A DNA stretch of 64,000 nucleotides from an uncultured Gammaproteobacteria bacterium (GCA_964535655.1 CAZHTP010000004.1:11108-75107); one strand, 5' to 3'; positions 4,450 to 43,026 are shown, numbered from the stretch's first letter. Translations and numbers: made by a program. The notes: generated by a model not told the origin, from the letters alone.

Positions 4450-4508
4450 TTTAGTATTATACCAGCTTTTGGTTTAAACTGTTAACACTAATGGTGTAAA
4501 ATGGTACT

Positions 4509-6662: not shown

Positions 6663-7967
6663 ATGAAACTTTTTCTTGTAGTAATAGTAGTTTTAAGTGC
6701 GGCTATTTATCCTTCGTATATTCTTGCTGGGCAATATCGATTACAGCGATTTTCTCAGATACAGAAAGCTGATGTTGGGGTACTTTCCCAACTGGATAAG
6801 CGTAACACTGCACTTACTATTCTTACTTTGTCCCAAAAAAATGTTTTTGATTTAAGTAAGGAAAATATTAGTACTGAATCAGCTACTATTGTTTTGAATT
6901 CAATTCGTGCTTCATTTGCAAAAGGGGATTATGATTCAGTAGGAACTTTAAGTGCTCAACTTACTTCTGGGATAGTGAAAGCGCGAGCTGATGACAAAAA
7001 TTTGTATGATGATTTCTCACACAAAATTGTTGAGTTAGGGGAAAAGCGGGATGCTTATAAAAAGCAGGGGGTTACTGTTGCAACGATCTCGGCAGGAATT
7101 GCTTCGGCTAGTGCGAGTCTTTTGGGTAAAGACTATTTGGTATTACCTTCACTCTTAACACTGCTGGATGATTCTCTCACTTCGCTCCTTGTTCAAAAGA
7201 AAGAGGCTGATAGAAAGGCGGCGCTTGCGGCAGCCGCAGCAATCGCTGCGCCAGTTGCGCCACAATCAGTGGGTGGTATTACTTATGAAAGAAAAACTAT
7301 TGGTACTTCCGTAGGATCATTTAGCGTTGATATTCTTACCGTTGATCTTAATCGTGTTAAGGCTAAAACATTTACTGCAAGTGATAGTGATTGTGTAACT
7401 AACTGTCCTTTGAAACCATTGGCTTCGTATGTTTTGGAAAACGGGGGTATTGCTGGAATAAATGGATCGTATTTTTGTCCGGCAGATTATTCGTCTTGTT
7501 CAAGTAAAGTTAATGCCTTTGATCTGCTTGTATTTGATTATCGTAGTAAGCATTATGCTAATTCTGCACAGAATCAATATAGGGTTAACCCACTCATTAG
7601 TTTCTATCCTGACGGAGCTCACTATTATACTCAGGCTTTAGGTTTTGGTCGAGACACCAGTGCTTATGGAGCTATATCCAATTTTCCTACTCTTATTCAT
7701 AATGGTGGAATTTCTGTAAATGGAGGACTCGACGCAAAATCTGCGGGGACAAAAACCTTTCGTGGCGGAATCGGATTTAGAGGTAAAACTTTATGGACCG
7801 TAATGACACGAGGTGCTACTGTCCCCGATACGGCATACGTTTTTCAAGCATTAGGTGCGCAGTATGCGATGAATTTAGATGGTGGAGGGTCGGCTGCCTT
7901 GTATTTTGGAGGGTATAAAGTAGGGCCGGGGCGCAATCTTCCCAATGCTGTTGTATTCACTCCGTAA
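6663..7967 (+). CDS. Secreted/anchored phosphodiester glycosidase family protein (NAGPA/DUF2233-like)
   Basis: N-terminal signal/anchor. INGSYF and MNLDGGGSAALYFGG are motifs typical of the phosphodiester glycosidase domain. Confidence 0.55.
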   Translation: MKLFLVVIVVLSAAIYPSYILAGQYRLQRFSQIQKADVGVLSQLDKRNTALTILTLSQKNVFDLSKENISTESATIVLNSIRASFAKGDYDSVGTLSAQLTSGIVKARADDKNLYDDFSHKIVELGEKRDAYKKQGVTVATISAGIASASASLLGKDYLVLPSLLTLLDDSLTSLLVQKKEADRKAALAAAAAIAAPVAPQSVGGITYERKTIGTSVGSFSVDILTVDLNRVKAKTFTASDSDCVTNCPLKPLASYVLENGGIAGINGSYFCPADYSSCSSKVNAFDLLVFDYRSKHYANSAQNQYRVNPLISFYPDGAHYYTQALGFGRDTSAYGAISNFPTLIHNGGISVNGGLDAKSAGTKTFRGGIGFRGKTLWTVMTRGATVPDTAYVFQALGAQYAMNLDGGGSAALYFGGYKVGPGRNLPNAVVFTP

Positions 7968-7994
7968 CTTTCAAGCTGCTGTTATACTTTCCTC

Positions 7995-8141: not shown

Positions 8142-9794
8142 GTGCAGTTGTTGTGCTGGAGGTTAACCTTCTCGAGAGCCTCGGGGAGGTTTTTTTTGAT
8201 TGAATATTATTCTTCTTTTGAATCTAATGGATATGAGCGGTTAGTTTCCGTCCTTGGAGCGCAAGAATTTTCCACTTTGTTTAGGATAACTCCAGAAGAA
8301 CTGGCTGTGCGAATGCGTTCATTATCTTTGAGACGGCGAAAATTATCTGATAGTGAAGTCGAGAAACGGTACGATGAAGGGTTTTTGAAAATTCACTCGG
8401 TAACACGCGATGTAGAACGATTTCAAGAAGCAGAGATTAGTGTGCAAAAATTGCGAGATGAAATTGCTGGGATTGGTGTTCCTGGCTTTGAGACGCTTCT
8501 TAAAGAGTATTTGTTTGGGAAAAATACTTTTTTTTATAACAAAGTGGTGCAGAATCCCCATACAAAGGAGTTGAAAATTGTCGCGTATGATCCTATTTCT
8601 CATTGTAATGAATCATGGACTCAGGCATGGGAGCGAGAAGATTTGAGGGAGTCGTACCGGCGTTTTATTACTCGTAAAAGTGAAGAAGATCCTCACTATT
8701 CTCGCCGGCTACAATACCGTGATGATTCTGAGCTTGAGCTTATGGATATGCTTCTCGCGCAAGGTGTTTGTTTTATGCAAACACCAAGTTCTGAAAGATC
8801 GCCAATTATTATGTCCTTAAGTCCTGCTCCTAAACCAAGTAAATACGCGCGGGATATGGGATATGCAAGCTGGTGGACGAAGCGACTTTCGCATTGGAGA
8901 AGTTATGGTTTTGAAATGACTGAGGGGGGGGTGTTGATTCATGCCTCTACGGTGTTTACGTATAGAAATATTAACCGAATGCGGCATTTAATGAAGGAAG
9001 TTGTTCATAGAGAAAATGAATCAGCAATTCGCAAGCTATCGATTATTTCTGATGATAGGGAATTGCTTGCAACTCCGTTTGTATCGCGGTTTGAACAGGC
9101 AGGACGAACAGACTTAGTAGCCGTGACTGAGCAGATTGATACTTCACTGAATAGTGATTCCGCCTGGTATGATCCACTATTCGTTTTTTCCGAGAAAGCT
9201 ACCCGTTGGCATAATGCTAAACGACTTACTGATGCAATTGTCGAAGAGAGGATTTTGGGAGAACTATTTCAAAAATATCTGCTTGAATATTATGCGGTAC
9301 TGCTTGCATGTAAAGGGAAGCCAGATCCTTATTTACTTCAGGAGATACTTATTGAAATGCGTGATGCGGCCTTTGAACTATACAGTGATGCGATGGCTGA
9401 TGCTGTTATCTCTTCCTCTACAAAAAGTCTTGATCGAGAAAAAATTAAGTTGGGATTTATAGCGAGCGCAAAAATTCGCGGGGAGGGAGGTAATTGTCCT
9501 ACTCTGAAGAAATTGCGTCGTGTGCAAAATGCTGATGATGAAGGGAATACTGATTATTCGGATGAAGAAAGCTGCCTACTTCAGTGTAGAGGTAAAAAAC
9601 TAGATACTCTTTTGGATCTTGTAGTAGATTGTCATTGGAGTGCGCGTGCTGAGAAGGGGAAAGTGTACAAAGAATGTCCTGATTGTGGTTGGTATCCAGG
9701 GAAAGTTCAGAATTTTGATTTTGTAAAGACATTACTTGAGCCCCTTGTACTCGACTTAGGTTCAAGAAATTATGAAATGGTATATGTTAGGTAA
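8142..9794 (+). CDS. Hypothetical protein with C-terminal Cys4 zinc-ribbon (CLLQC..CPDCGWY); start uncertain
   Basis: Long ORF with no motif I recognise apart from the C-terminal CxxC..CxxC. The track start overlaps the upstream terminator, so the true start is probably downstream (TTG at about 8199 or ATG at about 8316). Confidence 0.35.
   Translation: MQLLCWRLTFSRASGRFFLIEYYSSFESNGYERLVSVLGAQEFSTLFRITPEELAVRMRSLSLRRRKLSDSEVEKRYDEGFLKIHSVTRDVERFQEAEISVQKLRDEIAGIGVPGFETLLKEYLFGKNTFFYNKVVQNPHTKELKIVAYDPISHCNESWTQAWEREDLRESYRRFITRKSEEDPHYSRRLQYRDDSELELMDMLLAQGVCFMQTPSSERSPIIMSLSPAPKPSKYARDMGYASWWTKRLSHWRSYGFEMTEGGVLIHASTVFTYRNINRMRHLMKEVVHRENESAIRKLSIISDDRELLATPFVSRFEQAGRTDLVAVTEQIDTSLNSDSAWYDPLFVFSEKATRWHNAKRLTDAIVEERILGELFQKYLLEYYAVLLACKGKPDPYLLQEILIEMRDAAFELYSDAMADAVISSSTKSLDREKIKLGFIASAKIRGEGGNCPTLKKLRRVQNADDEGNTDYSDEESCLLQCRGKKLDTLLDLVVDCHWSARAEKGKVYKECPDCGWYPGKVQNFDFVKTLLEPLVLDLGSRNYEMVYVR
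8176..8198 (+). terminator. Intrinsic-terminator-like GC hairpin (GCCUC-GGG-GAGGU) followed by U8
   Basis: agcctcggggaggt followed by tttttttt at 8191-8197. It lies immediately upstream of the most plausible start of the 8142..9794 ORF. Confidence 0.4.
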
Positions 9795-30603: not shown

Positions 30604-31623
30604 ATGGATGAACTGCTCGCCTTTATACAAACTGCTCGCTTTGCTGGTGCGAGTGATGAACAGATTACTGCTATCTTATCAGAAAAAGGGTGGCTAGCTG
30701 ATCAAATTCAAGCTTCATTCGCTCAATTAAAGGCACCTGTTGCGGTTTCAAGCAGTGCCATCCCTCATTTGGAGATTCCCGCAATTCCGGAGATGCCTTC
30801 TGTTGAGCCAATTCCGACTATTCAAGAAAATAGTTATATTCAAGAGGCCCCGCCTATACAGGAACAGCCAATAATTCAAGAACCTCAAGTTCCTGATATT
30901 TCCAGGTATGCAGTGCCGTCCAGTCAAATTATTCCTGATCAAGGATATATTGCGCCATCAACTCCAGCACTTCCAGACTTGGTTATCCCTACAAAAACAA
31001 AAGATGTTGTGCCAGGATATGTTAATGAATCGGCAATGGTTACGCCCAAAGAGAAACACCCTAAAACTACAATTGCGGCGATATGTATTGTATTACTTTT
31101 GGGGGTGGGGGGATTTGCTTATTGGAAAGGCTTACTACCTACTAATTTTTTTAAGCGTACTCAAGTTGCGACTTCAGTTTTTGCCCAATATGAGCCATTA
31201 AAAAGGAATACTGCGATACTCCTTACCGATTCAGTTCGATTTACGATAACCGGGTCGCAAGTGATGAGTAGTGATGACTTTAATGCGTTACAGGAGGATA
31301 GTGATGGAGTACGGGCAACCGCTGATAATGATGTTCTACTCGTATACTATACAGTTCAAAATATGAGTGATACACCACAAGTGTTAGCGACAACAGAAGG
31401 AGATTCTCAAACTTTCTCAGTGGTTGATTCTAATCAAAAGCGAGTAGATATTGCGTCTGGAATTTTTTCAGATAGTCTTACAAGTTTGGCTGATCTAAAA
31501 CCTCGTCAGTATACGAGTAACGCGATATTATTTGAAGTTCCTAAGGCGACAGATGTTCATACATTGTTCTTTATGCTTCAGTCGAGTGATGCTCGACCAG
31601 CTAAGGGGTATTTAGTGTTATAG
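30604..31623 (+). CDS. Membrane-anchored hypothetical protein, DUF4352-like C-terminal domain
   Basis: N-terminal helical domain, Pro-rich linker, one TM (TTIAAICIVLLLGVGGFAYW), and a C-terminal beta domain resembling DUF4352. Confidence 0.4.
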   Translation: MDELLAFIQTARFAGASDEQITAILSEKGWLADQIQASFAQLKAPVAVSSSAIPHLEIPAIPEMPSVEPIPTIQENSYIQEAPPIQEQPIIQEPQVPDISRYAVPSSQIIPDQGYIAPSTPALPDLVIPTKTKDVVPGYVNESAMVTPKEKHPKTTIAAICIVLLLGVGGFAYWKGLLPTNFFKRTQVATSVFAQYEPLKRNTAILLTDSVRFTITGSQVMSSDDFNALQEDSDGVRATADNDVLLVYYTVQNMSDTPQVLATTEGDSQTFSVVDSNQKRVDIASGIFSDSLTSLADLKPRQYTSNAILFEVPKATDVHTLFFMLQSSDARPAKGYLVL

Positions 31624-31906
31624 TTTTTGTTAACTCCTGAATAATTTCCTTATGCGGTTTATCTATTATTTCTTCAGGTACTTCAAGTAGGCCAGCTAGG
31701 CCAATTATTTCTCTAGTAAGAGGATTTACTAGCAGTTCCTTAAACTGAATAAATTCTCCAAATATATCTACAAGATCCTTTTCGGTAAGCAGGCCTTGTT
31801 TATAATATTCGAGTGTTTCTTGGCAGATATGCAAAAAACACTCCTGCTTCCCAGCGGGTTCGGTATGCTTGTATTTATGTATTTGGTTCTGGATGTATTT
31901 TTGCAT
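31601..31906 (-). CDS. Hypothetical protein
   Basis: ORF only. Confidence 0.25.
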   Translation of the reverse strand: MQKYIQNQIHKYKHTEPAGKQECFLHICQETLEYYKQGLLTEKDLVDIFGEFIQFKELLVNPLTREIIGLAGLLEVPEEIIDKPHKEIIQELTKTITLNTP

Positions 31907-31950: not shown

Positions 31951-31985
31951 TGACAATTCTGTCAGGATTTTAGACAATAGTGTCA
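31951..31985. promoter_or_regulatory. Two operator-like inverted repeats TGACA-N4-TGTCA (31951-31964) and GACA-N4-TGTC (31972-31985), centres 21 bp apart
   Basis: tgacaattctgtca and agacaatagtgtca, read directly from the sequence in an AT-rich intergenic region upstream of the 32433 promoter module. Confidence 0.35.
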
Positions 31986-32056
31986 TGATTTTTTGTGATG
32001 GCATAGGAATTTAACTGAGTTACACTTTGGCTCGATTGATGACTAAGGAGTCGTTT

Positions 32057-32269
32057 ATGTTAGATATGTTATTTTTATACTCTCCAGTCTTTTCGCGTTT
32101 TCTGGAGCTTAAGGGTTACTGTTATCCCTTCCTTCCCAGTCTTGTTTTCTTTTTTCTAGATGTATACCATAAAATTGGGTTTTTTGATTTAGCCTTGAAG
32201 TTAACAGTTTTAGATCACATATCATCGTACTTGTATTGTGTTTATGAAGATCTTACAATGTTAGAATAA
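32057..32269 (+). CDS. Possible small F/L/Y-rich hydrophobic protein (71 aa) with perfect SD AAGGAG; may be spurious in AT-rich DNA
   Basis: AAGGAG at 32045-32050, 6 nt, ATG at 32057. The composition could simply reflect T-rich sequence. Confidence 0.25.
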   Translation: MLDMLFLYSPVFSRFLELKGYCYPFLPSLVFFFLDVYHKIGFFDLALKLTVLDHISSYLYCVYEDLTMLE

Positions 32270-32432
32270 TGATTTATAGAAAGTACTTACGGTTAGATTT
32301 TATGCGATTCAGGATGTGCCTTCTAATTGGGATGGCCGAAGATTAATACAGTTTCTTATGTTTACCTACTCGATTGAGTAGGTATTTTTTTAGCTCATTT
32401 TTGATAGTTTAATTTTTTTATGGCTTATAGTA

Positions 32433-32461
32433 TTGACTCGGATCTAAATGTGTGCTATAAT
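32433..32461 (+). promoter_or_regulatory. Near-consensus sigma70 promoter TTGACT-17-(TGc)TATAAT
   Basis: -35 TTGACT at 32433-32438, 17-nt spacer, extended -10 TGcTATAAT at 32453-32461. Confidence 0.6.
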
Positions 32462-32492
32462 CGCGCTCCAAACAATGGTTTGGGGGAAATTT

Positions 32493-32534
32493 ATGAAAAC
32501 TTATAGTATTTTTCTTATTTATTTTTTATTTTAG
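32493..32534 (+). CDS. 13-codon leader ORF MKTYSIFLIYFLF (putative leader peptide)
   Basis: GGGGG SD at 32482-32486, then ATG at 32493. The stop at 32532-32534 lies 8 nt before the terminator stem. 4 Phe, 2 Tyr, 2 Ile, 2 Leu. Confidence 0.4.
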   Translation: MKTYSIFLIYFLF

Positions 32535-32541
32535 CCGAATA

Positions 32542-32570
32542 GCGCTACTCAACTATTGAGTGGCGTTTTT
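32542..32570 (+). terminator. Intrinsic terminator: 10-bp stem (GCGCUACUCAA / UUGAGUGGCG, one G-U) + U5
   Basis: Stem 32543-32552 / 32556-32565, then ttttt at 32566-32570. It lies between the leader ORF and the downstream gene start at 32578. Confidence 0.55.
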
Positions 32571-32577
32571 AGTATGT

Positions 32578-33498
32578 ATGGCAGTTAAAGAGGCGGGTTT
32601 ACCAGAAATTGAATTTAGTAAGATAGAGCCATCGGTTCGAATGCCTAATTTGCGGGCTGTTAAAAGTAACGAAATATTGTATTCCCCAGGTGTAGAGCTA
32701 ACGGCTGAGTATGTTATGAAACATACTGAATTTAAAGATGTAACAACAGATTGTGAGTTGCTAGAAGCTACTTTAAGAACGGTAGCTGCTAACTATGCTC
32801 CCCTAGCTAATCCTGAACATGCGCTTTCTCAAGATGATGTGTACGACCTTCTTTGTAAGGACGGTAATGAAGTAGAAGGCAGATCGGTTGTTCTAGCTGC
32901 AGTTACAGAATTGCCTCACCAACAAGGGCGTGTAGTTACTTCTACGATGCGTTTCGTATTCGGTACAGATCAAGGTCGGCAAGGATTGCCTCCCATTGCA
33001 GAGATGGACTTAGTTGATGCTGTTTGGCCCAACGAAAGGGAAGGTAAGCCATATTCGACGATAGCAACGGTTGGCAGATACTGCTTAACTGAAGATGTTA
33101 GGAAGCTGCATGGTATACCTGGACATTTAACTGGTAATTTATTGAGATTAGGTTTCAATATTGGCAAGCAAAAATATCCTCCTGTAGAGTTTTTTGCTGC
33201 TGTTATGCCTCAAAGAGTCGTTCGTAATGTAAAGGCTGGTAATATTGAAGTTCGTGCTTTAGAAATGCAGTTAAAAAGAATACCGGGTTATGAGCTTGGA
33301 TTGGATTTAAGTGGGAACACTGAGGCTTTAGACTCACTTTATTCAGCTGCTAATTCAGTCGAAGAAATGCGTCGAATTCAAGAGGCTGTTTCTGCAAATG
33401 CCTATTATCTTAAGTTTTCCAAATATTGGTTACCACATTTATATGGTTATCGCGACGCTCCATCATTACATGAATTTATAGTTCCACAGGAGATCTAA
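32578..33498 (+). CDS. Hypothetical protein (about 306 aa), no recognisable motif
   Basis: ATG at 32578 (MAVKEAGLPEIEF). The track's GTG at 32560 lies inside the terminator stem. The stop is 2 nt before the next gene. GC is about 40-44% by eye, above local background. Confidence 0.45.
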   Translation: MAVKEAGLPEIEFSKIEPSVRMPNLRAVKSNEILYSPGVELTAEYVMKHTEFKDVTTDCELLEATLRTVAANYAPLANPEHALSQDDVYDLLCKDGNEVEGRSVVLAAVTELPHQQGRVVTSTMRFVFGTDQGRQGLPPIAEMDLVDAVWPNEREGKPYSTIATVGRYCLTEDVRKLHGIPGHLTGNLLRLGFNIGKQKYPPVEFFAAVMPQRVVRNVKAGNIEVRALEMQLKRIPGYELGLDLSGNTEALDSLYSAANSVEEMRRIQEAVSANAYYLKFSKYWLPHLYGYRDAPSLHEFIVPQEI

Positions 33499-33500
33499 TT

Positions 33501-34712
33501 ATGTCAGCGGAACAATCTTCGTTCAAATCTTCCGAATTATCTATTGAAAATGTTGGTCATGGTGCAAAAGTTACAATTTATTCTCTGAATGATCCTCAAG
33601 AAAAAGGAAATTTTTTTAAGTCATTGCGAGCACATGCGTTGGGCATAGGTAGAGATAACGATAGGTTTTTACTTTGGAGGCTTGGAAATGATGAGCCTGC
33701 AATGTTGGATAGAGCTGTAGAGTTAGGGTTTTTAAAAGATGAATTGCCTTTGCAAGCGATTGATTATGCTAAGTTGAAAGGTGAGGTTGCACTAGGAGAA
33801 AGAAGGCGGATTGGCGAAAAAGTAAATAGCCTTGAAGCTTTAACAATAGCAGAGTTTAGCTGGTTAAACGAAGAAAAGTTTGTAACGATATTGCCTTATA
33901 AGCAAATGCGAGAGGTTGTTTTTTCTAGAAATAAAGGTGTCTTTTCGGATGAAGCTTATGAAAAACTTCGGACTACAAAGATTGCTATCATTGGCGCAGG
34001 AGTGGGTTTTTCTATAGCCGAAGTTTTGATGTGGTTAGGTGCTGAAAATCTGATTGTAGTTGATGGTGGTACTGTAGCTCCGCATGATACTCAAAGGCTT
34101 CCTTCCAGTGGAGTACATTCCTATGGACTAAATCATGCAATACATTTTTTGCAACGGGCTTATGATTTTTTCCCTTATGGTAACTATAATGCTATTGCAA
34201 ATAATGTGGGAATTGATGAAAATTCTGATACTTTAATTGGCCTTAATAAAATACTTAATTGGGTAGGTATGGATGGATTGGTACTTGAAGAGGTTGATCA
34301 ACTCTATTTAAAAGGTGAAATAAGACGTCGTGCTAAAGTTCCGGTGTTTATGGGCTCTGATGTCGCATTAGCAGGTACAAATCAGGTGCATAGACCTGAT
34401 CAATCTTTGTTTGGAGGTCGCTTAACTGATGCTGATATGGATCAGCTTAAGACTTACTATCTCGAAGGAACTGAAATGCCTAGAGAATTCAAGACAGATG
34501 TAGTTAGGAAAGTTATGGGAAACTTCTTAACCCCTGATTTTATGCGGGCATTTGGACAAGTTATACAGTCTGGTGGAGAATATTGGCCTCAATCAGGTAT
34601 AGCTGCACGATTATCTAGCGCTATTGTTGGCGCTGCTATTATGGAATATCTAGAAGGTCATCCAATTAAAGATGAATTAATGATTGATCTTAGGACAGCA
34701 GTAAGACAGTAA
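33501..34712 (+). CDS. Rossmann-fold nucleotide-binding protein, E1/ThiF/MoeB-like (or NAD(P)-binding); no Cys; 160-aa N-terminal extension
   Basis: KIAIIGAGVGFSIAEVLMWLGAENLIVVDGGTVAPHDTQRL resembles the ThiF/E1 GxGxxG..D..D block. There are zero cysteines in 403 aa, so no E1 thioester site. Confidence 0.4.
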   Translation: MSAEQSSFKSSELSIENVGHGAKVTIYSLNDPQEKGNFFKSLRAHALGIGRDNDRFLLWRLGNDEPAMLDRAVELGFLKDELPLQAIDYAKLKGEVALGERRRIGEKVNSLEALTIAEFSWLNEEKFVTILPYKQMREVVFSRNKGVFSDEAYEKLRTTKIAIIGAGVGFSIAEVLMWLGAENLIVVDGGTVAPHDTQRLPSSGVHSYGLNHAIHFLQRAYDFFPYGNYNAIANNVGIDENSDTLIGLNKILNWVGMDGLVLEEVDQLYLKGEIRRRAKVPVFMGSDVALAGTNQVHRPDQSLFGGRLTDADMDQLKTYYLEGTEMPREFKTDVVRKVMGNFLTPDFMRAFGQVIQSGGEYWPQSGIAARLSSAIVGAAIMEYLEGHPIKDELMIDLRTAVRQ

Positions 34713-34756
34713 ATTTAGGTGGTTCCGTTGCAAATTTATGATTTTAGTTTTACTCT

Positions 34757-37534
34757 ATGTATATGGGATCCTTAACGCTAGGGATAGTTGTATTTACTGC
34801 TATTATAAATATTTTCCTTGGGCTATTAGTTTTACTAAAAAATCCTAGTAGCGCCACAAATAGATTAATTACTGCACTTGCAATTATTTTTTCTGCTTGG
34901 TCTGTTTTTAATTACTTTTCACTTAACTCCGTTACAGCTGATGCAACTTTATTTTGGATTAGGATGGTTATGGTTGCAACTGCTCCTTTAGGTCCAACCG
35001 TTGCTTTAGCTTTGAAGGCTTTTCCTTCTTCAGAGTTAGCAATTAATAAAAAGATATTATACGGTTTACTTATTTCTACTGTAATAGTATCAATATTAGC
35101 CTTAACTCCTTTTGTTTTTTCAGGAGTAACATTATCACCAACAATTAGCCCAACACCGAATTTTGGAATTTTATTTTATGTAGTGCTATTTATAGGCTCA
35201 CTTATTTATGGGATTGTTGTAACTGTTAAAAAATATAGAAAAGCGAAAGGGGTTAGCAAACTCCAATTTAAGTATTTGTTTATAGGTGTAATATTAACTT
35301 TTGCACTCCAAGTTCTTACTAATTTTATTGCAGTTGTTTTGTTTAACTTTTCGGGACTTGTGGCTTTAGGACCTTCGTTCTCTTTAATTTTTGTAGGGTT
35401 AATTTCATATGCAATAATAAAACATCGCTTGCTTGATATTCGATTAGCCTTAAGACGTGGTTTGGCACAATTATTAATTGCCTTTACAATTCTAGCTATT
35501 TTTATTGTAGCGGGGATTATGTACGCAAGCCTCAATGGCCTTAAATTTGATACAAATTTGTTATTTGTATTTATTTTTGTTGCATTTCTACTTTCTTTTA
35601 TTTATGACTCCGTGTCTTACTATTTAAGAAAAGCAACCGATAAGTATTTATTTACGAGTTTGTATACACCTTCAGAGCTTCTACGCGAACTAAGTATTGC
35701 CTTAAATTCAACGCTGGATTTTGAAGAAGTGTTAAAGAATGTTTATGGAATCATTAACAATAATCTTCATATTTCTAGTATTGCTTTTGCTGTTAAGCTT
35801 CAAGGTAGAAAAAACATTTCTAACCTGTTCCCACAATCTGATTTTGCAATATATGAATATGGAGATAAAAATAAAAAACTAATTATGGTAAGTATTTTAG
35901 CTGATTTTTTGAAAAATACAGAAGGGGCGGTAGTTTTCGAAGATCTCCAGCGTGATTTGGCTGAAATTGAGGAAGTAAGCAAGCGTAAAATTTATGAGTG
36001 GATGACTGAAAATGAAGTTGGTATTGTACTTCCATTAAAAGTTAAAAATGAAGTAATTGGTGCAGTTATGTTAGGGGAGAAGCTTTCAGGAGATGCCTTT
36101 ACTTCTGAAGATGTAGATGTTTTAGAAACCTTTGCGTTACAAGCTTCAATTGGTATTGAAAATATACTTCTGTTCATGCATTCAAGAGATTTTGGTGAGC
36201 GGTTGAAGATTGAAGTTGAGAAAGCGACGGCAGAACTGAAACAAAAGAATAAAAACCTTGAGATTTTGCGTCATATGGAGAATATTATCACCACGACTTT
36301 AGACTTAAAGGAGATGTGCCAAAAGATTGTAGATACTATTTCTTGGGAGCTTGGCTATGAGGGAGCCTTGATCAGCTTAGTTGATCCTAAACGCAATGTG
36401 TTGGTGCCGACTGCTGTTTCCCAAACTCCGACAATTAAGAAAGCTTTGGCTATTTTACCTGCCCATATGGAAGATATTGTTATGCCATTAACGGAGAAAA
36501 AAAGTATGGCGGTACAAGCTCTCGATTTACGTACTAAAATTACCACAATATCACTTGCAGATGCTTTTGCACCGGGCTTGCCTCGACCAGTATCCGATGC
36601 TATTCAGAAGTTAGTGGGTATGAAGGGCATGATTACATATCCACTTTATTCTAAAGATAAGCCGTTGGGAGTTCTTGCTCTTGCAATGCATGTGTCTCCG
36701 CGCGATGTTCCTTTCTCAGAAATGAACGTTCTTGATGCTTTCATGGATGAGGTGGGAATAGCACTAGAGAATTCGTATCTGTATGAAGAAGCTAAGACTG
36801 CAAATGATGCGCTTGAAGTAAGTAACCAGAAGTTGATAGAGCTGGATAAGATGAAAGATGAGTTTGTGTCGGTGGCTTCGCATGAACTGCGTACTCCGAT
36901 GACGGCAATCAATGGCTATGTGTGGATGCTTCTTAATGGCAAGGGAGGGGAGCTTCAAGAAAAGCAGAGATATTATTTGCAACGTGTTGCGCAGTCTACA
37001 CAGCGGCTTATCAATCTTGTGAATGATATGTTAACTATCTCTCGTATTGAAGGTGGCCGTACAAAAATTGAAAATAAAAACTTTGAACTGGTTGATTTGC
37101 TTAAAGCCGTGAATGAAGAATTACAGATTAAGGCTGATGAAAAGGGAATTAAGTTAGGTTTGCAGACTGAAGATGTGGTGCATGTGTTTGCCGATCAAGA
37201 TAAAGTGCATGAAGTATTGATTAATTTGATCGGTAACTCTTTGAAGTTTACTGAACAAGGTTCGATCACGACCACAGTTCTTGATAAAGGCGATTATGTT
37301 GCTGTTTCTGTCAATGATACTGGCAAGGGGATAGCAGCGGAAGATATGCCAAAACTGTTTACCAAATTTGGACGATTGGATAACCAATATGCTACGGTTG
37401 CACAGACTGCTGGCACAGGATTAGGTTTATATATTTGCAAAAAATACATTGACGGTATGGGCGGGACTGTGTCTGTTACCTCGACAGTGGGTAAGGGCAG
37501 TACATTTACGTTTACTCTTAAGAAAGCTTTGTAG
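34757..37534 (+). CDS. Sensor histidine kinase: about 8 TM N-terminal domain + GAF-like + HisKA + HATPase_c
   Basis: The multi-TM N-terminus spans about 300 aa. H-box VASHELRTPM. N/G boxes LIGNSLKFT, GTGLGLYICKKY. Confidence 0.8.
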   Translation: MYMGSLTLGIVVFTAIINIFLGLLVLLKNPSSATNRLITALAIIFSAWSVFNYFSLNSVTADATLFWIRMVMVATAPLGPTVALALKAFPSSELAINKKILYGLLISTVIVSILALTPFVFSGVTLSPTISPTPNFGILFYVVLFIGSLIYGIVVTVKKYRKAKGVSKLQFKYLFIGVILTFALQVLTNFIAVVLFNFSGLVALGPSFSLIFVGLISYAIIKHRLLDIRLALRRGLAQLLIAFTILAIFIVAGIMYASLNGLKFDTNLLFVFIFVAFLLSFIYDSVSYYLRKATDKYLFTSLYTPSELLRELSIALNSTLDFEEVLKNVYGIINNNLHISSIAFAVKLQGRKNISNLFPQSDFAIYEYGDKNKKLIMVSILADFLKNTEGAVVFEDLQRDLAEIEEVSKRKIYEWMTENEVGIVLPLKVKNEVIGAVMLGEKLSGDAFTSEDVDVLETFALQASIGIENILLFMHSRDFGERLKIEVEKATAELKQKNKNLEILRHMENIITTTLDLKEMCQKIVDTISWELGYEGALISLVDPKRNVLVPTAVSQTPTIKKALAILPAHMEDIVMPLTEKKSMAVQALDLRTKITTISLADAFAPGLPRPVSDAIQKLVGMKGMITYPLYSKDKPLGVLALAMHVSPRDVPFSEMNVLDAFMDEVGIALENSYLYEEAKTANDALEVSNQKLIELDKMKDEFVSVASHELRTPMTAINGYVWMLLNGKGGELQEKQRYYLQRVAQSTQRLINLVNDMLTISRIEGGRTKIENKNFELVDLLKAVNEELQIKADEKGIKLGLQTEDVVHVFADQDKVHEVLINLIGNSLKFTEQGSITTTVLDKGDYVAVSVNDTGKGIAAEDMPKLFTKFGRLDNQYATVAQTAGTGLGLYICKKYIDGMGGTVSVTSTVGKGSTFTFTLKKAL

Positions 37535-37550
37535 TTACCGTAACTGAATT

Positions 37551-39356
37551 TTATCCTTGCAGCACTTGATTTATAACCGGTGGTATTTGATCCGGTGTGA
37601 CATCGGACTTCATAATTAAGGATTTTGCTCCAAGCTGGATGCATTTATTAAGTACCTCTTCGGCGGCGAGGTTGGTGAGGAGGACGACCGGGATAGCAAA
37701 GTTTTTAGAGTGATCCTTTTTCTTTTGCAGAAATTCTACTCCGTCCATTTTGGGCATCATAATGTCTAAAAGCACAAGATCGTAATGATCCATTTCCATT
37801 TTAAGCAGGCCTTCTTGTCCGTTGGTGGCAATGGTAACGTTGTACATATCTGATAAATACTCTCCATACAAATCTTGCATATCTGCATCGTCTTCGATAA
37901 GCAATATATTTTTCTTGGTGTTTGCTTGCGGTTTGAGTGGTATTTCATTTCGTTTACCAATAGCGCGGAGATAGTCTTCGCGAGTGATAATTCCTTCATG
38001 AACAAAATTGGGAGCAACTGCCGGTTTGCGCGGTGCTACCAAGCTTGGTGTGATGGGTAGGGAGATATAAAATGTGGAACCTTTGCCGTGTTCGGAATCC
38101 ACCCAAATTTTTCCTTGCATAATTTCGGTCATCGATTTTGTAATGTATAATCCAAGCCCGGTGCCACCGGTTTCTGGATTAGAAGCGGTAAGAGAAGTAT
38201 CTTCACGGTGAAATTTTTTGAAGAGTTGGGGAAGAAAATCTGGGGCAATACCTCGACCGGTATCTTTGATCTCGAACTGGATATTTTCATCTTTTTTAAT
38301 AATGTGGATGGTAACACCACCTTTATCTGTGAACTTAACGGCATTGCTCACGAGATTCATCAAAATTTCTTTTAAGCGCATATTGTCTACTTGAATAGTA
38401 GGTGGTAAATCGTCGCTTTTTGTTACGGTTAAGGTAATTTTCTTGTTTTGAGCCTTAGCTGTTAAGTCTTTTACTATTTCATCAATAACATCAAGGTAAT
38501 TTATTGCTTGTGGGTTCAGCTCAATGCTTCCGCTTTCTATTTTAGAGACGTCGAGAATGTCATTGATGAGGTGGATAAGGTTTTGTATTCCAGTAAACGA
38601 ATTTTGTAACCTTTCTTTGTCTTTGTCAGAAAGGACTGTCCCTGCTGCCGGTTTAGATAAAATCATCCATAAGTAGTTTTGGACAACTGTTGCCGGAGTG
38701 CGCAATTCATGGGAGGTTACCGCAATAAGTTGGTCCTTCATTTTATCTAACTGATGAAGCTGAGCGTTGGTTTTGTATAACTCTTGTGTGATGGTAGTGA
38801 TTGAGTTTTGCGAATCTTGTAATCTAAACGCTGAGGCAATTAAATTGGAAAGCATTTGCGTGATTTGTAGTTGCATTTGATTTAGTTCAATAGGCGGCTT
38901 GTCTACACCATAAATGACTATACCGCGTAACACTTTAGCGATGTATATCGGTGCAATGAGAATGGCTTGAATTTCCTGTTTATTTTCTATCACTGAAGGG
39001 ATAATAGTATCTTTATCTTGAATTATTGCGATTTTACGATTTTTTAAATCTGTTTTAATGCGGTTTTCCGTGTTTAAAATAGTGTTAGTTTTTTCGTAAA
39101 GTTCTTTTGCTTCACTATTTGCTTGCATATCTGACTGTTCAAATTCCCCAGTCTGCGCGTTTTTAGTATAGATGAGGGCAATTTGTTTTTCGTCATCAAT
39201 GAACAGTGCGCTTAAATATTTGGTGTTAAGATCGATTAATTGTAGTTTAACAGGTACTTGATTAAGTGCTTTGACTACCAGTAGCTCCGTGTCGTCAGTA
39301 TCCAGCATCGACTGCTGGGTTTCAGCGATAAATGATAGGTTGATCTTATCTGTCAT
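37551..39356 (-). CDS. Cytoplasmic hybrid sensor histidine kinase (GAF-like sensor + HisKA + HATPase_c + C-terminal REC)
   Basis: H-box VTSHELRTPA. G-box GGTGLGLYITK. C-terminal receiver ILLIEDDADMQD..LVLLDIMMPKMDG. No TM segment. Confidence 0.8.
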   Translation of the reverse strand: MTDKINLSFIAETQQSMLDTDDTELLVVKALNQVPVKLQLIDLNTKYLSALFIDDEKQIALIYTKNAQTGEFEQSDMQANSEAKELYEKTNTILNTENRIKTDLKNRKIAIIQDKDTIIPSVIENKQEIQAILIAPIYIAKVLRGIVIYGVDKPPIELNQMQLQITQMLSNLIASAFRLQDSQNSITTITQELYKTNAQLHQLDKMKDQLIAVTSHELRTPATVVQNYLWMILSKPAAGTVLSDKDKERLQNSFTGIQNLIHLINDILDVSKIESGSIELNPQAINYLDVIDEIVKDLTAKAQNKKITLTVTKSDDLPPTIQVDNMRLKEILMNLVSNAVKFTDKGGVTIHIIKKDENIQFEIKDTGRGIAPDFLPQLFKKFHREDTSLTASNPETGGTGLGLYITKSMTEIMQGKIWVDSEHGKGSTFYISLPITPSLVAPRKPAVAPNFVHEGIITREDYLRAIGKRNEIPLKPQANTKKNILLIEDDADMQDLYGEYLSDMYNVTIATNGQEGLLKMEMDHYDLVLLDIMMPKMDGVEFLQKKKDHSKNFAIPVVLLTNLAAEEVLNKCIQLGAKSLIMKSDVTPDQIPPVINQVLQG

Positions 39357-39361
39357 GTGAT

Positions 39362-39649
39362 TTAATTCTTTAATATATCCGGCAAATCTTGCGGTTCAAT
39401 TTTGCCTTGTAATGGTTCAATTGCTTCTTTACAGATTTGGACTGAGGCTTGACCGAACAGTTTGGAATATCTTTCTACCAGGCCTTGAATGATTGTTTTT
39501 CCGTCACCTTCGAGTTTAATGTCATTAATATCCTGAATGTGTAGCCCCGGCACCTTGTTTGCTTGTGTGATAGCAATAGGACCAATAATATATTGTTGCT
39601 CTTTAATTATGTATGCTGCAATTTGATTATACAAATCTATGTTATTCAT
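39362..39649 (-). CDS. Hypothetical small protein
   Basis: ORF only. The stop is 6 nt upstream of the hybrid HK start. Confidence 0.3.
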   Translation of the reverse strand: MNNIDLYNQIAAYIIKEQQYIIGPIAITQANKVPGLHIQDINDIKLEGDGKTIIQGLVERYSKLFGQASVQICKEAIEPLQGKIEPQDLPDILKN

Positions 39650-40439
39650 ATTCTCTAAATGAAAGTAATCCTAAAGACATAATTAGAAATGAAGTTGTAT
39701 ATAACATATCTACAACTCCACCGTTGTAATAGGTACCGTTTGCTGTCATGTATAAAAAAGTATAATCTGTAAAATATTGAAAACCTAAGGCAAAAATTAA
39801 GTAAAGGATTCTGCTACGCATATGTCCGCCTAGTACTCCAGTTGATAATCCTAGCGTGATTAAAGCAATAGAAATGGTGATAGCTTCACCAAAAGGATAT
39901 CCAAAATCTAGAAAAGTTCTTATTGGATCGGATATATCGAAGGCTAAATTCTTCAAAAATAGAAAATAGGAGATAGCTACCATGAGTATTGGGATGATAA
40001 CTACGAGCGCTTTACCTTTTATAGTCTTGAGATTATATTTTGCGTTAGAAGCTTTTGCTAAATAAAGTATTCCAATAGCATATAGTGGGATTATCGAAAA
40101 GTATCCTATGTCTGCAATGGATGGATACGGCACTTCGATTTTTGCAATTATATTATAGTATGACCAGACTCCTTGGCCGAAAAACTCTCCTAAAAGTCCG
40201 CAAGAAAAGAATAAAATTCCTCTTCCCATTGCACTTCTATATGTTCCCCATACACGCGAAACTAGAATCCCACTAATTCCTCCAATAAGCGCGATTGCTG
40301 AGTAGAGAAAACCAAAAAGATATACTTCGCTTGTTCCTTTTATATCTAGGATGTTTAATCGTAACCACCACAATAAAAGGAGACAATAGAAAGTTACAAG
40401 AAAATAAGTGGTTTTACTTCTAATAATCGTAGAGAACAT
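39642..40439 (-). CDS. Polytopic membrane protein (about 8 TM), hypothetical
   Basis: Hydrophobicity pattern. Overlaps the downstream small ORF by 8 nt. Confidence 0.4.
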   Translation of the reverse strand: MFSTIIRSKTTYFLVTFYCLLLLWWLRLNILDIKGTSEVYLFGFLYSAIALIGGISGILVSRVWGTYRSAMGRGILFFSCGLLGEFFGQGVWSYYNIIAKIEVPYPSIADIGYFSIIPLYAIGILYLAKASNAKYNLKTIKGKALVVIIPILMVAISYFLFLKNLAFDISDPIRTFLDFGYPFGEAITISIALITLGLSTGVLGGHMRSRILYLIFALGFQYFTDYTFLYMTANGTYYNGGVVDMLYTTSFLIMSLGLLSFREYE

Positions 40440-40491: not shown

Positions 40492-41316
40492 TTATTCAAT
40501 GTCAGCATAAAAATGCGCAAATCCTTCGCCCATTTTATACTTTATTCTAACAGTTAAGCTGTCACCTCTGTTTGCTTTACTGTTTTTAATTGGGATAATA
40601 ATAGGCATGTTCATGTCAGGAGTACCCCACATTCTTTGCTTTTTTGTAAGAGCGACGCGAGTCCTCATACGTATGGCATTACAATGTCCTGAAACTTTAA
40701 TTGGTATTTCTACGGCAGTATCTACTGTGGTATCGATGTACTTTCTAAAGTCAATTTCCTGATATAGAATGCTATCGGACAATACTTTAATAATTTTGTC
40801 ATTTGCTCCGTAATTTCGCGCTTGAATAATGCAAGGCATTTCAAATCCGTAAAAATTAAAATCATAATCTATCGCTTCCACATAACATTCAGCTTTATAG
40901 GGTATTAAAATAGTATGTTCGTCGATTGTTTTATTCTTTCTTAAATTATTTAAAGCCACTGCTTGTTGTTCGGAGACTAATCCTGTGTCAAGCATTTCCA
41001 TGATTAAGACATTAACCTTTACCGGCTCATTGAATTTCTTTAGATCCTGGCACAAAACAGTTATCTTGTTTTTGTAGGGGCTTGCAGCAATATTTTTTTT
41101 TGCTTGCATGATGGTATCTTCCGCTATATCCACTGAGTAAACTTTTTTTGCTCCGGCACGAGCAGCCAATAAGCCCAAGATACCCGTACCTGTGCCTGCG
41201 TCCATGACTACGTGATGGTCTTGAATTGTTGCGTTTATCGCTTTTTCAAAAGCCTCAGTTCTTTTGACATCCAATAAACATTCGTTTATTACTTGTAAAT
41301 TATTGAAGATATCCAT
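40492..41316 (-). CDS. Class I SAM-dependent methyltransferase, protein arginine N-methyltransferase (PRMT)-like
   Basis: Motif I VVMDAGTGTGILGLLAARAGAKKVYSVDIA. PRMT-like double-E loop region VNVLIMEMLDTGLVSEQQ. Confidence 0.65.
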   Translation of the reverse strand: MDIFNNLQVINECLLDVKRTEAFEKAINATIQDHHVVMDAGTGTGILGLLAARAGAKKVYSVDIAEDTIMQAKKNIAASPYKNKITVLCQDLKKFNEPVKVNVLIMEMLDTGLVSEQQAVALNNLRKNKTIDEHTILIPYKAECYVEAIDYDFNFYGFEMPCIIQARNYGANDKIIKVLSDSILYQEIDFRKYIDTTVDTAVEIPIKVSGHCNAIRMRTRVALTKKQRMWGTPDMNMPIIIPIKNSKANRGDSLTVRIKYKMGEGFAHFYADIE

Positions 41317-41323
41317 AAATTTG

Positions 41324-41851
41324 TTACGTCCATCCTTCGGACTGATATACAGCTAATGCTAATGCACAACTTGGGTATTGATTAACTTGAGTATGAGCGA
41401 TCTTACTATGAACATTATTTTTGTCGAAAGGAATGTTTCTGAAATCACATAGATCGTTTAAAGAGTTACTAATTTTTAGCTCTAAGTTACGGATTACTTC
41501 CTCGAGATTTGTTCCTCGTTCGTCGTGTTCAACAAATAATCCACGGTTATCCTGATACTGATACCATCCAATTCCTGCTGCAATTATTTCTTTCGGCTGA
41601 ATACTTCGTATTTCGGCTTTTACGCAATACAGTTTGTGCCCATATTCATTTTCATTCAAATTAAGAATTGGCATTTTTACAACTTTTGAATCAGGAGGGA
41701 TAATAGAGGAAAGAGGTATAAGATTGTAATTACATACACCTGTCGCTTTAAGTGCTGCATCAAATGCAGATAATTCTGTTTTACCAAAACCGGAACCAGA
41801 TACTACATAAATAGTGAGTCCTGTAACAAAATTTTCAGTCATTTCGTTCAT
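41324..41851 (-). CDS. pdaD: Pyruvoyl-dependent arginine decarboxylase
   Basis: IYVVSGSGFGKTELSAFDAALKATGVCNYNLIPLSSIIPP aligns closely with archaeal PdaD, including the SS self-cleavage site. Confidence 0.85.
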   Translation of the reverse strand: MNEMTENFVTGLTIYVVSGSGFGKTELSAFDAALKATGVCNYNLIPLSSIIPPDSKVVKMPILNLNENEYGHKLYCVKAEIRSIQPKEIIAAGIGWYQYQDNRGLFVEHDERGTNLEEVIRNLELKISNSLNDLCDFRNIPFDKNNVHSKIAHTQVNQYPSCALALAVYQSEGWT

Positions 41852-41940: not shown

Positions 41941-41969
41941 TTGACAAAAAAGGACGCCTCTAGTAATAT
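41941..41969 (+). promoter_or_regulatory. Promoter TTGACA-17-TAATAT with GGAG SD and GTG start downstream
   Basis: -35 at 41941-41946, -10 at 41964-41969, GGAG at 41971-41974, GTG at 41980. Confidence 0.45.
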
Positions 41970-41979
41970 TGGAGAATCT

Positions 41980-43026
41980 GTGGAGCCAAATGTAAGCTTT
42001 TCTGAACTTTTTAATAAGTTTAGACATAAAGCTAACTTTCATACTTATTCTCAATTTGGTCAGGCACTAGCTGCCGAAGGTTTTGTATTTGAAGACAGTA
42101 TCTTTTCAAAATGGAAACAAGGAAAGCGATTTCCTCACGATCGTAGAGTCATTTTGGCGATTATTAAAGTGCTAGTAAGAGGCAAAGGGATAACACATTT
42201 GGATGATGCGAATGCTATGCTTGCTTCTGTAGAACAAAGAGATTTATCTCATACTGAAAAACAGCAGATCCTTGAAGGTTTAGTTTCAGAAAATCAAGTT
42301 TATTCTTATTACACACCCACTGTTCGACCTTCGCTAATTCTTCAAAATATTGAAGTTAACGCACATAGTACTTATGTTTTAAATCTACAGGACATTACTT
42401 ATCCTAAGATTCGTAATTATTGGCAATATCAAACTCTCTGTGCAGTCTCCGAAAACTATACTGCTCTTTGTGAAAAAGCTATTTCTTCAGAAGAGGCGTT
42501 TAAAATGCAAGTTGAAGATGATTATGACAAAATTGGATATGGAACTACTCTTGTTGTAGTAGTAATCGATAAAAACGTTGGTAGAGAATATTTAGCTGCA
42601 ACAGGGCGATTCACTAAGGGTAAAAACTTACATTCTGTAACCCTGGATCTAATGAATTTTCTCAACGTAAAAGGAAAGTGGCCTCATGAAGAAAAAAATT
42701 GTCCTCCAGAACTTACGGCTGAATTTGATCGAATTTATATAGCGAATTGGGCTTGGTCATGGAGGAAGCAACTTTTTAGACAACTTCTTGATTCTGTTGC
42801 CGAGCTGGTAAAATGGAATAATACAAAATTTTTGTATAGTATAACTGCTCCTTCATTGCATGTTCTATATCAAGAAAATGAAATTCAATTTGAAAAAATT
42901 CAGGATGTATATTTTTTGGGGAATCTTCCTGAAGCAGCTGTACTTTTTCCTTCAGCTTACTTTGAAGCAACCCATTTTAAAGAATGGTGGAATGCGTATA
43001 CTGGATTATATAGATTAATGTTGTGA
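41980..43026 (+). CDS. XRE-type HTH transcriptional regulator with about 250-aa C-terminal domain of unknown function
   Basis: N-terminal FSELFNKFRHKANFHTYSQFGQALAAEGFVFEDSIFSKWKQGKRFP is an XRE HTH. The track's TTG at 41941 coincides with the -35 box, so the GTG at 41980 is preferred. Confidence 0.5.
   Translation: MEPNVSFSELFNKFRHKANFHTYSQFGQALAAEGFVFEDSIFSKWKQGKRFPHDRRVILAIIKVLVRGKGITHLDDANAMLASVEQRDLSHTEKQQILEGLVSENQVYSYYTPTVRPSLILQNIEVNAHSTYVLNLQDITYPKIRNYWQYQTLCAVSENYTALCEKAISSEEAFKMQVEDDYDKIGYGTTLVVVVIDKNVGREYLAATGRFTKGKNLHSVTLDLMNFLNVKGKWPHEEKNCPPELTAEFDRIYIANWAWSWRKQLFRQLLDSVAELVKWNNTKFLYSITAPSLHVLYQENEIQFEKIQDVYFLGNLPEAAVLFPSAYFEATHFKEWWNAYTGLYRLML

Follow-up and report, generated by a model that had tools for sequence, protein, structure and literature searches.

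What do the products of two tightly spaced genes in the region 31951-34712 of a 64,000-nt stretch of DNA (hereafter the window) do for their host, an uncultured gammaproteobacterium? The original prediction, made from the sequence alone, saw here a stand-alone, horizontally acquired module in which a protein of no recognisable family and a cysteine-free E1/ThiF-like enzyme stand behind a promoter, a tiny leader open reading frame (ORF) and a terminator. It left two options, a peptide- or ubiquitin-like-protein-adenylating system and an uncharacterised small-molecule modification cassette. Our analysis supports the second. We propose that the leader, the two genes and a membrane histidine kinase gene downstream form one operon that encodes the synthase and the receptor of a lipid-like signal, a proposal that we regard as evenly balanced. 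The genes in question are the following.

32578-33498, plus strand: gene 1, 306 amino acids (aa), divergent N-acyl amino acid synthase-like protein (predicted FeeM/LuxI-fold GNAT)
33501-34712, plus strand: gene 2, 403 aa, cysteine-free ThiF-like protein, predicted adenylating enzyme of the oxazolone-cyclase (Rv1355c/TrzS) branch
34757-37534, plus strand: histidine kinase with a seven-transmembrane (7TM) domain and two GAF domains (7TM-GAF-GAF, assigned with Pfam), 44 nt past gene 2

A membrane histidine kinase follows both enzyme genes

The two genes had been described as translationally coupled, and both are found as expected, separated by 2 nt, with a GGAG preceding gene 2. No terminator was found in the 44-nt gap between gene 2 and the kinase gene. 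We surveyed gene order at every relative whose genomic context was retrievable. The order synthase, ThiF-like enzyme, HisKA_7TM kinase, all on the same strand, is kept in eight of the eight related loci with enough flanking sequence; the contig of L012 breaks off within its ThiF gene. In L001/L002, L004, L005, L006 and L011 the synthase and the ThiF-like enzyme are encoded by two genes ahead of the kinase, and synthase-ThiF fusion proteins precede it in L010 and L013/L014. The kinases of these loci are orthologous to that of the window. Since the outer neighbours differ among the loci, the trio is not residual synteny. Furthermore, the 7TM region aligns without gaps between the window and distant loci at 39-41% identity (E 4e-75 and 1e-56), and is thus better conserved than the homologues of gene 1 (24-34%) or gene 2 (20-32%). 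Because the kinase follows the pair in all eight loci and no terminator interrupts the gap in the window, it belongs to the unit, which consists of leader, synthase, ThiF-like enzyme and kinase. The module therefore does not stand alone. Nor does it lack a recognisable partner, as had been stated: gene 1 is predicted to supply the partner acyltransferase, and with the 7TM kinase the conserved components number three.

Constant adjacency of a synthase gene and a polytopic sensor kinase gene is a feature of autoinducer circuits, and it is found here in eight loci with orthologous 7TM domains. In quorum sensing, LuxM/LuxN, CqsA/CqsS and LqsA/LqsS are such pairs of a synthase and a membrane sensor kinase. 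Likewise, the cassette places a synthase gene beside a polytopic membrane histidine kinase gene, and phosphorelay would run through REC-only or hybrid components. Unlike in those pairs, the enzymes are of unrelated families, the sensor domain is of another kind (HisKA_7TM plus GAF), and the system is known from its genes alone.

In the window the 7TM kinase has no adjacent response regulator. A hybrid histidine kinase gene with a receiver domain (37551-40439, minus strand) converges on it across a 16-nt gap, and that receiver domain could accept phosphate from the 7TM kinase. Past the hybrid kinase gene lie genes for 95 and 265 aa without a family match, in an arrangement conserved in L001 only. 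REC-only response regulators are encoded downstream of the kinase in L004, L005, L006 and L010, and divergently upstream in L013/L014. Several distant relatives also carry type IV pilus or type II secretion (T2SS)-like genes (MshEN/T2SSE ATPases, T2SSF, N_methyl pseudopilins) around the cassette, namely at 13010-16379 in L004, 461-4634 and 10232-10759 in L013, in L014, and at 1521-2048 in L016. These flanking genes and the REC-only regulators may point to the output of the pathway. In L004 alone, a MiaB-like radical SAM gene (UPF0004 plus Radical_SAM; 6882-7979) on the same strand ends 22 nt before the synthase gene.

The cassette does not have the composition of a recent arrival. Horizontal acquisition had been suggested because both genes seemed richer in GC (about 40-44%) than the flanking kinase genes (about 33%). 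Gene 1 has 40.7% GC and gene 2 38.1%, within the range of 45 long ORFs of the window (39.5 +/- 2.5%); at third codon positions the values are 27.7 and 24.5 against 31.5 +/- 4.6 for these ORFs, low if anything. The flanking kinase genes have 36.4% and 38.9% GC, not 33%, and the low-GC stretch at 34750-36000 is the 7TM-coding portion of the downstream kinase gene. The whole neighbourhood is collinear with a 1.57 Mb contig of the relative L001. Base composition and this collinearity give no sign of recent acquisition, and on these grounds we rejected horizontal transfer.

Gene 2 is a predicted small-molecule cyclase

Gene 2 matches the Pfam ThiF family (2.6e-9) and has no cysteine in its 403 residues. 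The earlier assignment to the cysteine-free ThiF/E1-like nucleotide-binding enzymes, of an adenylating and non-thioester kind, is borne out. The best NCBIfam match is the Rv1355c family (8.7e-12), a model that relatives of gene 2 match at 1e-24 to 6e-32; gene 2 itself scores under the full-length cut-off because it has no oxidase half. Its residues 70-383 pair with residues 6-315 of a protein that is encoded on a Rhodococcus plasmid and annotated as Rv1355c-family (27.8% identity, 2.7e-10). Thus most of what had been taken for a 160-aa N-terminal extension would be cyclase-type domain, with about 70 residues left unaccounted for. The GxGxxG motif, R199 (in an N-x-x-R motif), E263/D266 and K271 are invariant across the gene 2 family, and D266 is the counterpart of the Asp whose mutation kills TrzS.

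Experiments have established that TrzS, OxzB and TyzB cyclise N-acyl aromatic amino acids to oxazolones in an ATP-dependent reaction, and their substrates are made by an adjacent acyltransferase of the FeeM/N-acyl homoserine lactone (AHL)-synthase fold (PMC12856293, PMC10404671, bioRxiv 10.1101/2020.06.11.147165). TrzS is Rv1355c; in Mycobacterium tuberculosis TyzACB and TrzAS are Rv2336-2338c and Rv1356c/Rv1355c, and OxzA/OxzB come from Pseudoalteromonas rubra. Like TrzS, gene 2 retains the adenylation Asp and is closest to the cyclase half of Rv1355c-family proteins. Together these matches place it in the TrzS/OxzB (Rv1355c) branch of ThiF-like enzymes, as a predicted ATP-dependent cyclase. 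Hence a ThiF-like cyclase of the TrzS/OxzB/TyzB branch with its adenylation Asp, one mark of an oxazolone pathway, is found at this locus.

The best PDB sequence matches of gene 2 are 9EGB, 9EGC and 9EGD, for which a literature search found no publication. A word-indexed search of 5.8 billion proteins returned one close relative. PADLOC gave only weak E1-E2 Rossmann matches, and a defence-system reading was dropped. On a Streptomyces plasmid (L009 4749-6523), a 390-aa ThiF-family gene, the best-covering plasmid match of this ThiF subfamily, runs into the beginning of a classical GNAT (Acetyltransf_3) gene; here ThiF and GNAT genes are paired in another way, with their order reversed.

Gene 1 appears to be a divergent N-acyl amino acid synthase

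Gene 1 alone has no match in Pfam, NCBIfam, PADLOC or PDB, and it had been described as a protein with no motif that could be placed. The word-indexed search gave three close relatives, the window's own protein included. An exhaustive profile search of 1.84 billion cluster representatives retrieved 43 relatives, mostly of about 240 residues and every one from metagenomes or uncultured organisms. NCBIfam TIGR03694, a family of PEP-CTERM/exosortase-associated acyltransferases, is matched by 26 of the 43, and Pfam Acetyltransf_5 or FeeM by a few, with all scores far under the family cut-offs. Compared with PDB, the family profile weakly matches the AHL synthases EsaI (0.066) and 3p2f (0.24). The family shares a conserved D, an R (in T-x-R-L-V-x-G), W-P-H and E-x-G-R-F, and the family alignment locates D95, R125, W150 and G166-R167 of these motifs in gene 1. 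The window clade carries an insertion of about 35 residues. We conclude that gene 1 most probably belongs, as a divergent N-acyl amino acid synthase, to the FeeM/LuxI fold family. Relatives match the TIGR03694/FeeM/Acetyltransf_5 synthases, yet gene 1 differs from the TIGR03694 family in the low scores, the insertion, the missing Glu of the last motif and its partners, a ThiF-like enzyme and a kinase rather than an exosortase locus.

Two metagenome scans added nothing new, one giving no match and the other only the L004 contig again, and a genome scan found the L001 genome only. In one family member, from L016 (6001-7167; protein P0038), the synthase-like domain is fused to an FAD_binding_4 (PCMH-type) flavoprotein domain beside KAS III fragments; the flavoprotein domain may be an alternative oxidase partner.

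The locus is a probable variant of the oxazolone pathways

The ThiF-like gene is immediately preceded by a putative acyltransferase gene, as it is in OxzAB, TyzACB and TrzAS by one of the FeeM/AHL-synthase fold; the matches of the gene 1 family to that fold are weak. One relative comes closer to the known pathways: L005 carries an Acg-family flavin mononucleotide oxidoreductase gene (3604-4794, minus strand; NCBIfam 3.6e-45) between its ThiF gene and its kinase gene, on the opposite strand. The Rv1355c model, too, matches the encoded protein with its oxidase half. It is present in this relative only, which so combines a full oxazolone enzyme set with the kinase.

Unlike known oxazolone pathways, the window has no flavin oxidase domain or gene; neither Pfam nor NCBIfam finds such a domain in gene 2. 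Gene 2 has about 70 extra N-terminal residues with no known match, and gene 1 has Thr for the family Glu. The invariant link to a 7TM histidine kinase is absent from the four core oxazolone papers, and a leader-peptide attenuator like the one predicted here is no part of those systems as described. Because the oxidase is missing, and the acyltransferase is putative and has Thr at the presumed catalytic Glu, we treat the locus as a variant of the oxazolone pathway and not as a member.

A leader ORF is positioned to control a terminator

The region before gene 1 contains these elements.

32424-32433, plus strand: motif CTTATAGTAT, copy 1, abutting the -35 hexamer; position kept in L001, L011 and L012
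32433-32461, plus strand: promoter TTGACT-17-(TG)cTATAAT, sigma-70 type with extended -10, 11 of 12 positions matching; conserved in L001, L011 and L012
32468-32483, plus strand: 5'-terminal hairpin CCAAAC-AAUG-GUUUGG (by RNA folding), overlapping the GGGGG Shine-Dalgarno (SD) sequence of the leader ORF
32493-32534, plus strand: leader ORF MKTYSIFLIYFLF, 13 codons; ORFs at the same place in L001, L011 and L012
32500-32509, plus strand: motif CTTATAGTAT, copy 2, leader ORF codons 3-6
32541-32571, plus strand: intrinsic terminator, a 12-pair stem (32541-32567) and a T-run, starting 6 nt past the leader stop

Most of this had been foreseen. The near-consensus promoter is real and is the sole match of its quality (11/12) within 3.5 kb; the stem over the GGGGG SD and the 13-codon ORF are likewise in place. 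The terminator exists too, with a stem of 12 pairs that begins 6 nt past the stop instead of the 10-bp stem and 8-nt distance first given. The whole leader folds with an energy that beats all 200 shuffles (z = -4.1). Gene 1 has no SD, and its ATG lies 10 nt past the terminator stem.

Promoter, 5' hairpin, leader ORF, terminator and an SD-less gene 1 ATG straight after the U-tract are common to the window, L001, L011 and L012, although the gene 1 homologues of L011 and L012 (P0005 and P0006) are just 33-34% identical. In L001 and L011 the equivalent hairpin has changed stem bases. The leader ORFs have 13 codons in the window and L001, 20 in L011 and 29 in L012, and in four of four genomes the stop lies at most 6 nt before the terminator or inside it. 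When the footprint of a ribosome at the leader stop was masked in silico, the terminator was lost in all four; constrained folding of the window leader changed its energy from -28.3 to -16.3 kcal/mol. A footprint in mid-ORF left the terminator intact (window and L001). The suggestion that translation of the mini-ORF controls readthrough thus probably holds, given this geometry in four genomes and the masked folds. A short conserved ORF placed to control a terminator is the mark of ribosome-mediated attenuators; here the placement is seen in the geometry and the translation is predicted.

According to this model, a ribosome that keeps pace with RNA polymerase would, once at the leader stop, mask the 5' arm of the terminator and permit readthrough. 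The same ribosome would then reinitiate at the SD-less ATG of gene 1, and the geometry of the leader suggests such termination-reinitiation as the route by which gene 1 is translated.

Ribosome-dependent attenuation is known from the pyrBI leader and from the mccA-mccB intergenic terminator; the mccA-terminator-mccB layout was reportedly described by Zukher et al. 2014. As in both cases, the stop of a short leader ORF adjoins an intrinsic terminator, and the position of the ribosome would decide whether the hairpin forms. Unlike in both, there is no evident antiterminator hairpin, the downstream gene is SD-less and follows right after the U-tract, and the leader ORF holds one copy of a DNA motif that also occurs at the -35.

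This motif, CTTATAGTAT, is found exactly twice in the window against 0.23 copies expected. In the window, L001, L011 and L012 alike, exactly 76 bp separate one copy from the other; this spacing holds although the leader ATG of L012 is 12 nt farther from the motif. Because the spacing is kept while the ATG shifts, the conserved TYS of the leader peptides probably reflects, at least partly, a constraint on nucleotides, most simply paired regulator sites, and nucleotide conservation in the 5' part of the leader ORF may stem from the repeated motif instead of translation. The pair is probably a binding site, and a regulator would act there, at the -35 and within the leader ORF. No leader ORF is present in the distant loci L004, L005, L006, L010 and L013, which indicates that the leader is a layer of control particular to one clade rather than a substrate gene.

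Proposed pathway and the evidence against it

By analogy to OxzAB, TyzACB and TrzAS, N-acylation of an amino acid would be the task of gene 1. Gene 2 would then adenylate the free carboxylate and cyclise the product to a saturated oxazol-5(4H)-one, or pass the activated carboxylate to another nucleophile. Since the window has no flavin oxidase, a desaturated oxazolone is not expected; a saturated azlactone or another carboxyl-activated derivative would be made. The invariant linkage of the kinase suggests that this product, or the N-acyl amino acid itself, would be detected by the co-transcribed kinase through its 7TM domain. That the locus represents an unrecognised class of cell-cell or self-signalling, in which an azlactone or carboxyl-activated amide derived from an N-acyl amino acid is the dedicated ligand of the 7TM kinase, we put forward tentatively and consider doubtful.

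Several observations weigh against this pathway. N-acyl amino acid synthases use a catalytic Glu (PMC4897644), which we take to be equivalent to the Glu of the family motif E-x-G-R-F; in the window clade this Glu is replaced by Thr, so gene 1 may work by a different chemistry or be non-catalytic. Comparison by hhalign of the gene 1 family with a hypothetical protein adjoining a Rhodococcus TrzS homologue (a putative TrzA) found no similarity (E 0.63). AlphaFold2 models of both proteins were unusable (gene 1, pLDDT 42.2 from a 3-sequence alignment; gene 2, pLDDT 42.8 from a 2-sequence alignment), so that both folds stay predictions. A tblastn search of the 64 kb with the Acg-type oxidase of L005 found no flavin oxidase, and a saturated azlactone would be hydrolytically labile. 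Furthermore, adjacency of the kinase does not prove that it is the receptor of the product, no DNA-binding response regulator is linked to the cassette (those nearby are REC-only), and the synteny sample is small, comprising nine loci of uncultured organisms.

Alternative explanations

The product could be a lipid with no signalling function, such as a surfactant, an antimicrobial or a membrane lipid, with the role of the 7TM kinase confined to control of the pathway, or of a co-regulated process, e.g. pili, in response to another cue. We think this unlikely, yet it survives best among the alternatives. For the known N-acyl amino acids and oxazolones, whose role is open, functions as surfactants, antimicrobials or lipids linked to stress have been suggested, and the pilus or T2SS-like genes beside the cassette in L004 and L013/L014 fit such a co-regulated process. 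However, an orthologous kinase gene comes next in every locus while the other neighbours vary, and its sensor domain is the best conserved part of the cassette, a pattern typical of synthase-receptor pairs.

Quite improbable, in our view, is a different chemistry in which the ThiF-like enzyme activates a carboxylate (of a fatty acid, an amino acid or another compound) and gene 1 transfers it to an amine, e.g. a decarboxylated amino acid, giving an amide that is not an oxazolone. Such a scheme could accommodate the Thr at the position of the family Glu. It could also draw on amino-acid decarboxylases of three unrelated folds, which lie near the cassette in three genomes:

Window 40492-41851, minus strand: PvlArgDC pyruvoyl arginine decarboxylase, with a PrmA/PRMT-like methyltransferase alongside
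L001 17949-19568: Orn/Arg decarboxylase-SET fusion
L011 3853-5409: pyridoxal phosphate-dependent decarboxylase, adjacent and divergent, by a tyrosyl-tRNA synthetase gene

The decarboxylases are not adjacent to the cassette in the window or L001, and they may be coincidental, or may contribute a supply or modification step. Gene order speaks for oxazolone-type chemistry instead: the synthase gene comes first, and the synthase is N-terminal in the fusions, as in the known pathways that acylate and then cyclise. The matching flavin oxidase of L005 argues in the same direction.

In a peptide system of the microcin C/PaaA kind, the mini-ORF would encode the substrate and the ThiF-like enzyme would adenylate its C-terminus. 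A tiny ORF, a terminator and an E1-like gene do recall the order mccA-terminator-mccB, and the mini-ORF is kept in four genomes. The leader peptides nevertheless argue against it: they have 13-29 residues, their last residues are F, V, A and A, and all that they have in common is (T/S)-Y-S, which falls on the DNA motif. None of the four has an Asn at its C-terminus, as MccA does, so that no precursor peptide with a defined last residue, as for MccB/PaaA enzymes, is co-conserved. Five distant loci with the gene trio, named above, lack the ORF. As for the enzyme, no MccB chain occurs among the 40 PDB matches of gene 2, PaaA gives a weak match (2.7e-4), and the nearest relatives of the ThiF domain are small-molecule cyclases. 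An RRE or peptide-clamp domain had been thought worth seeking in the N-terminal part, but for residues 1-140 neither Pfam, even at E 5, nor the PDB gave a match. The MccB/PaaA/ubiquitin-like type of system first favoured is therefore very unlikely.

Activation of a ubiquitin-like sulfur carrier by a canonical ThiF/MoeB/E1 enzyme can be dismissed almost entirely: the Pfam ThiF match and weak PDB matches to SAE1, UBA5, ThiF and MoeB are outweighed by a far better score on the Rv1355c family than on ThiF/MoeB models, by the lack of the catalytic and Zn-binding cysteines of these activators, which leaves no Zn site, persulfide or thioester possible, and by the lack of a small Gly-Gly-ended partner among the neighbouring ORFs examined, where no dedicated ubiquitin-fold search was made.

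Other elements of the neighbourhood

Upstream of the leader, and farther downstream, lie further features.

31601-31906, minus strand: divergent gene of 101 aa, 61% identical to its L001 homologue, with the palindromes below in its upstream region
31951-31964: inverted repeat TGACAATTCTGTCA (TGACA-N4-TGTCA), conserved in L001
31973-31985: inverted repeat GACAATAGTGTC (GACA-N4-TGTC), conserved in L001
32231-32391, plus strand: small conserved transcription unit, candidate small RNA, with a promoter-like site (TTGTAT-17-TACAAT), a body of about 100 nt and a terminator
41941-43026, plus strand: second synthase-like gene, a paralogue, 34% identical (tblastn, 1.3e-66), of the gene for a 355-aa protein of L001

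The palindromes had been regarded as paired operators of the gene 1 promoter. They are real and are the sole matches of TGACA-N4-TGTC in the window (3 strand-hits against 0.35 expected). Their proposed role is not supported: they lie about 480 bp upstream of that promoter, past an intervening terminator, and upstream of the divergent 101-aa gene. In L001 the palindromes (8380-8420) precede a regulator-like gene (8499-9566) for a 355-aa, helix-turn-helix (HTH)-like/synthase-like protein, which is absent at this spot of the window. They are probably operators of the divergent 101-aa gene or of the lost HTH-synthase gene. A 100-aa gene called upstream in L012 proved unrelated to the 101-aa gene and is an erroneous call across the conserved leader region.

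In its C-terminal part the 355-aa protein is typical of the gene 1 family (hhalign against the family profile, 99.2% probability, E 3e-19). By eye its N-terminus resembles an XRE-type HTH, with no Pfam match. The same is true of the protein encoded at 41941-43026, about 7 kb downstream of the cassette, a region that the synthase of L006 matches at 7e-11; its membership of the cassette is uncertain. Both HTH-synthase proteins retain an E-x-x-R motif, and they could be product-sensing regulators or bifunctional enzymes.

The small unit ends in a terminator at 32363-32384 followed by T7. L001 and L011 keep its position, promoter-like block and terminator, the last with compensatory changes in the stem, and L012 keeps them too; its body is poorly conserved. 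Rfam gave no family for the small unit and the leader region (best OmrA-B, E 0.37, chance level) and nothing at the gathering threshold in the window. The unit may encode a small RNA or serve as an insulator terminator.

What the cassette may mean for its hosts

Oxazolone lipids and many N-acyl amino acids are recent discoveries whose biological role was raised as open by their authors, and the oxazolone papers give the physiological role as unknown. A 7TM kinase constantly placed after both enzymes is a candidate receptor that makes the role of such molecules directly testable. If the proposed signalling class is real, it would provide the first physiological role of an oxazolone-type pathway, and also a new ribosome-gated attenuator combined with termination-reinitiation. 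The regulatory region is in itself a compact, conserved case in which predicted ribosome-controlled termination is joined to the translation of a gene without a ribosome-binding site. The gene family is very rare, and because all its relatives come from metagenomes or uncultured organisms, the cassette may represent a mode of signalling of poorly known bacteria.

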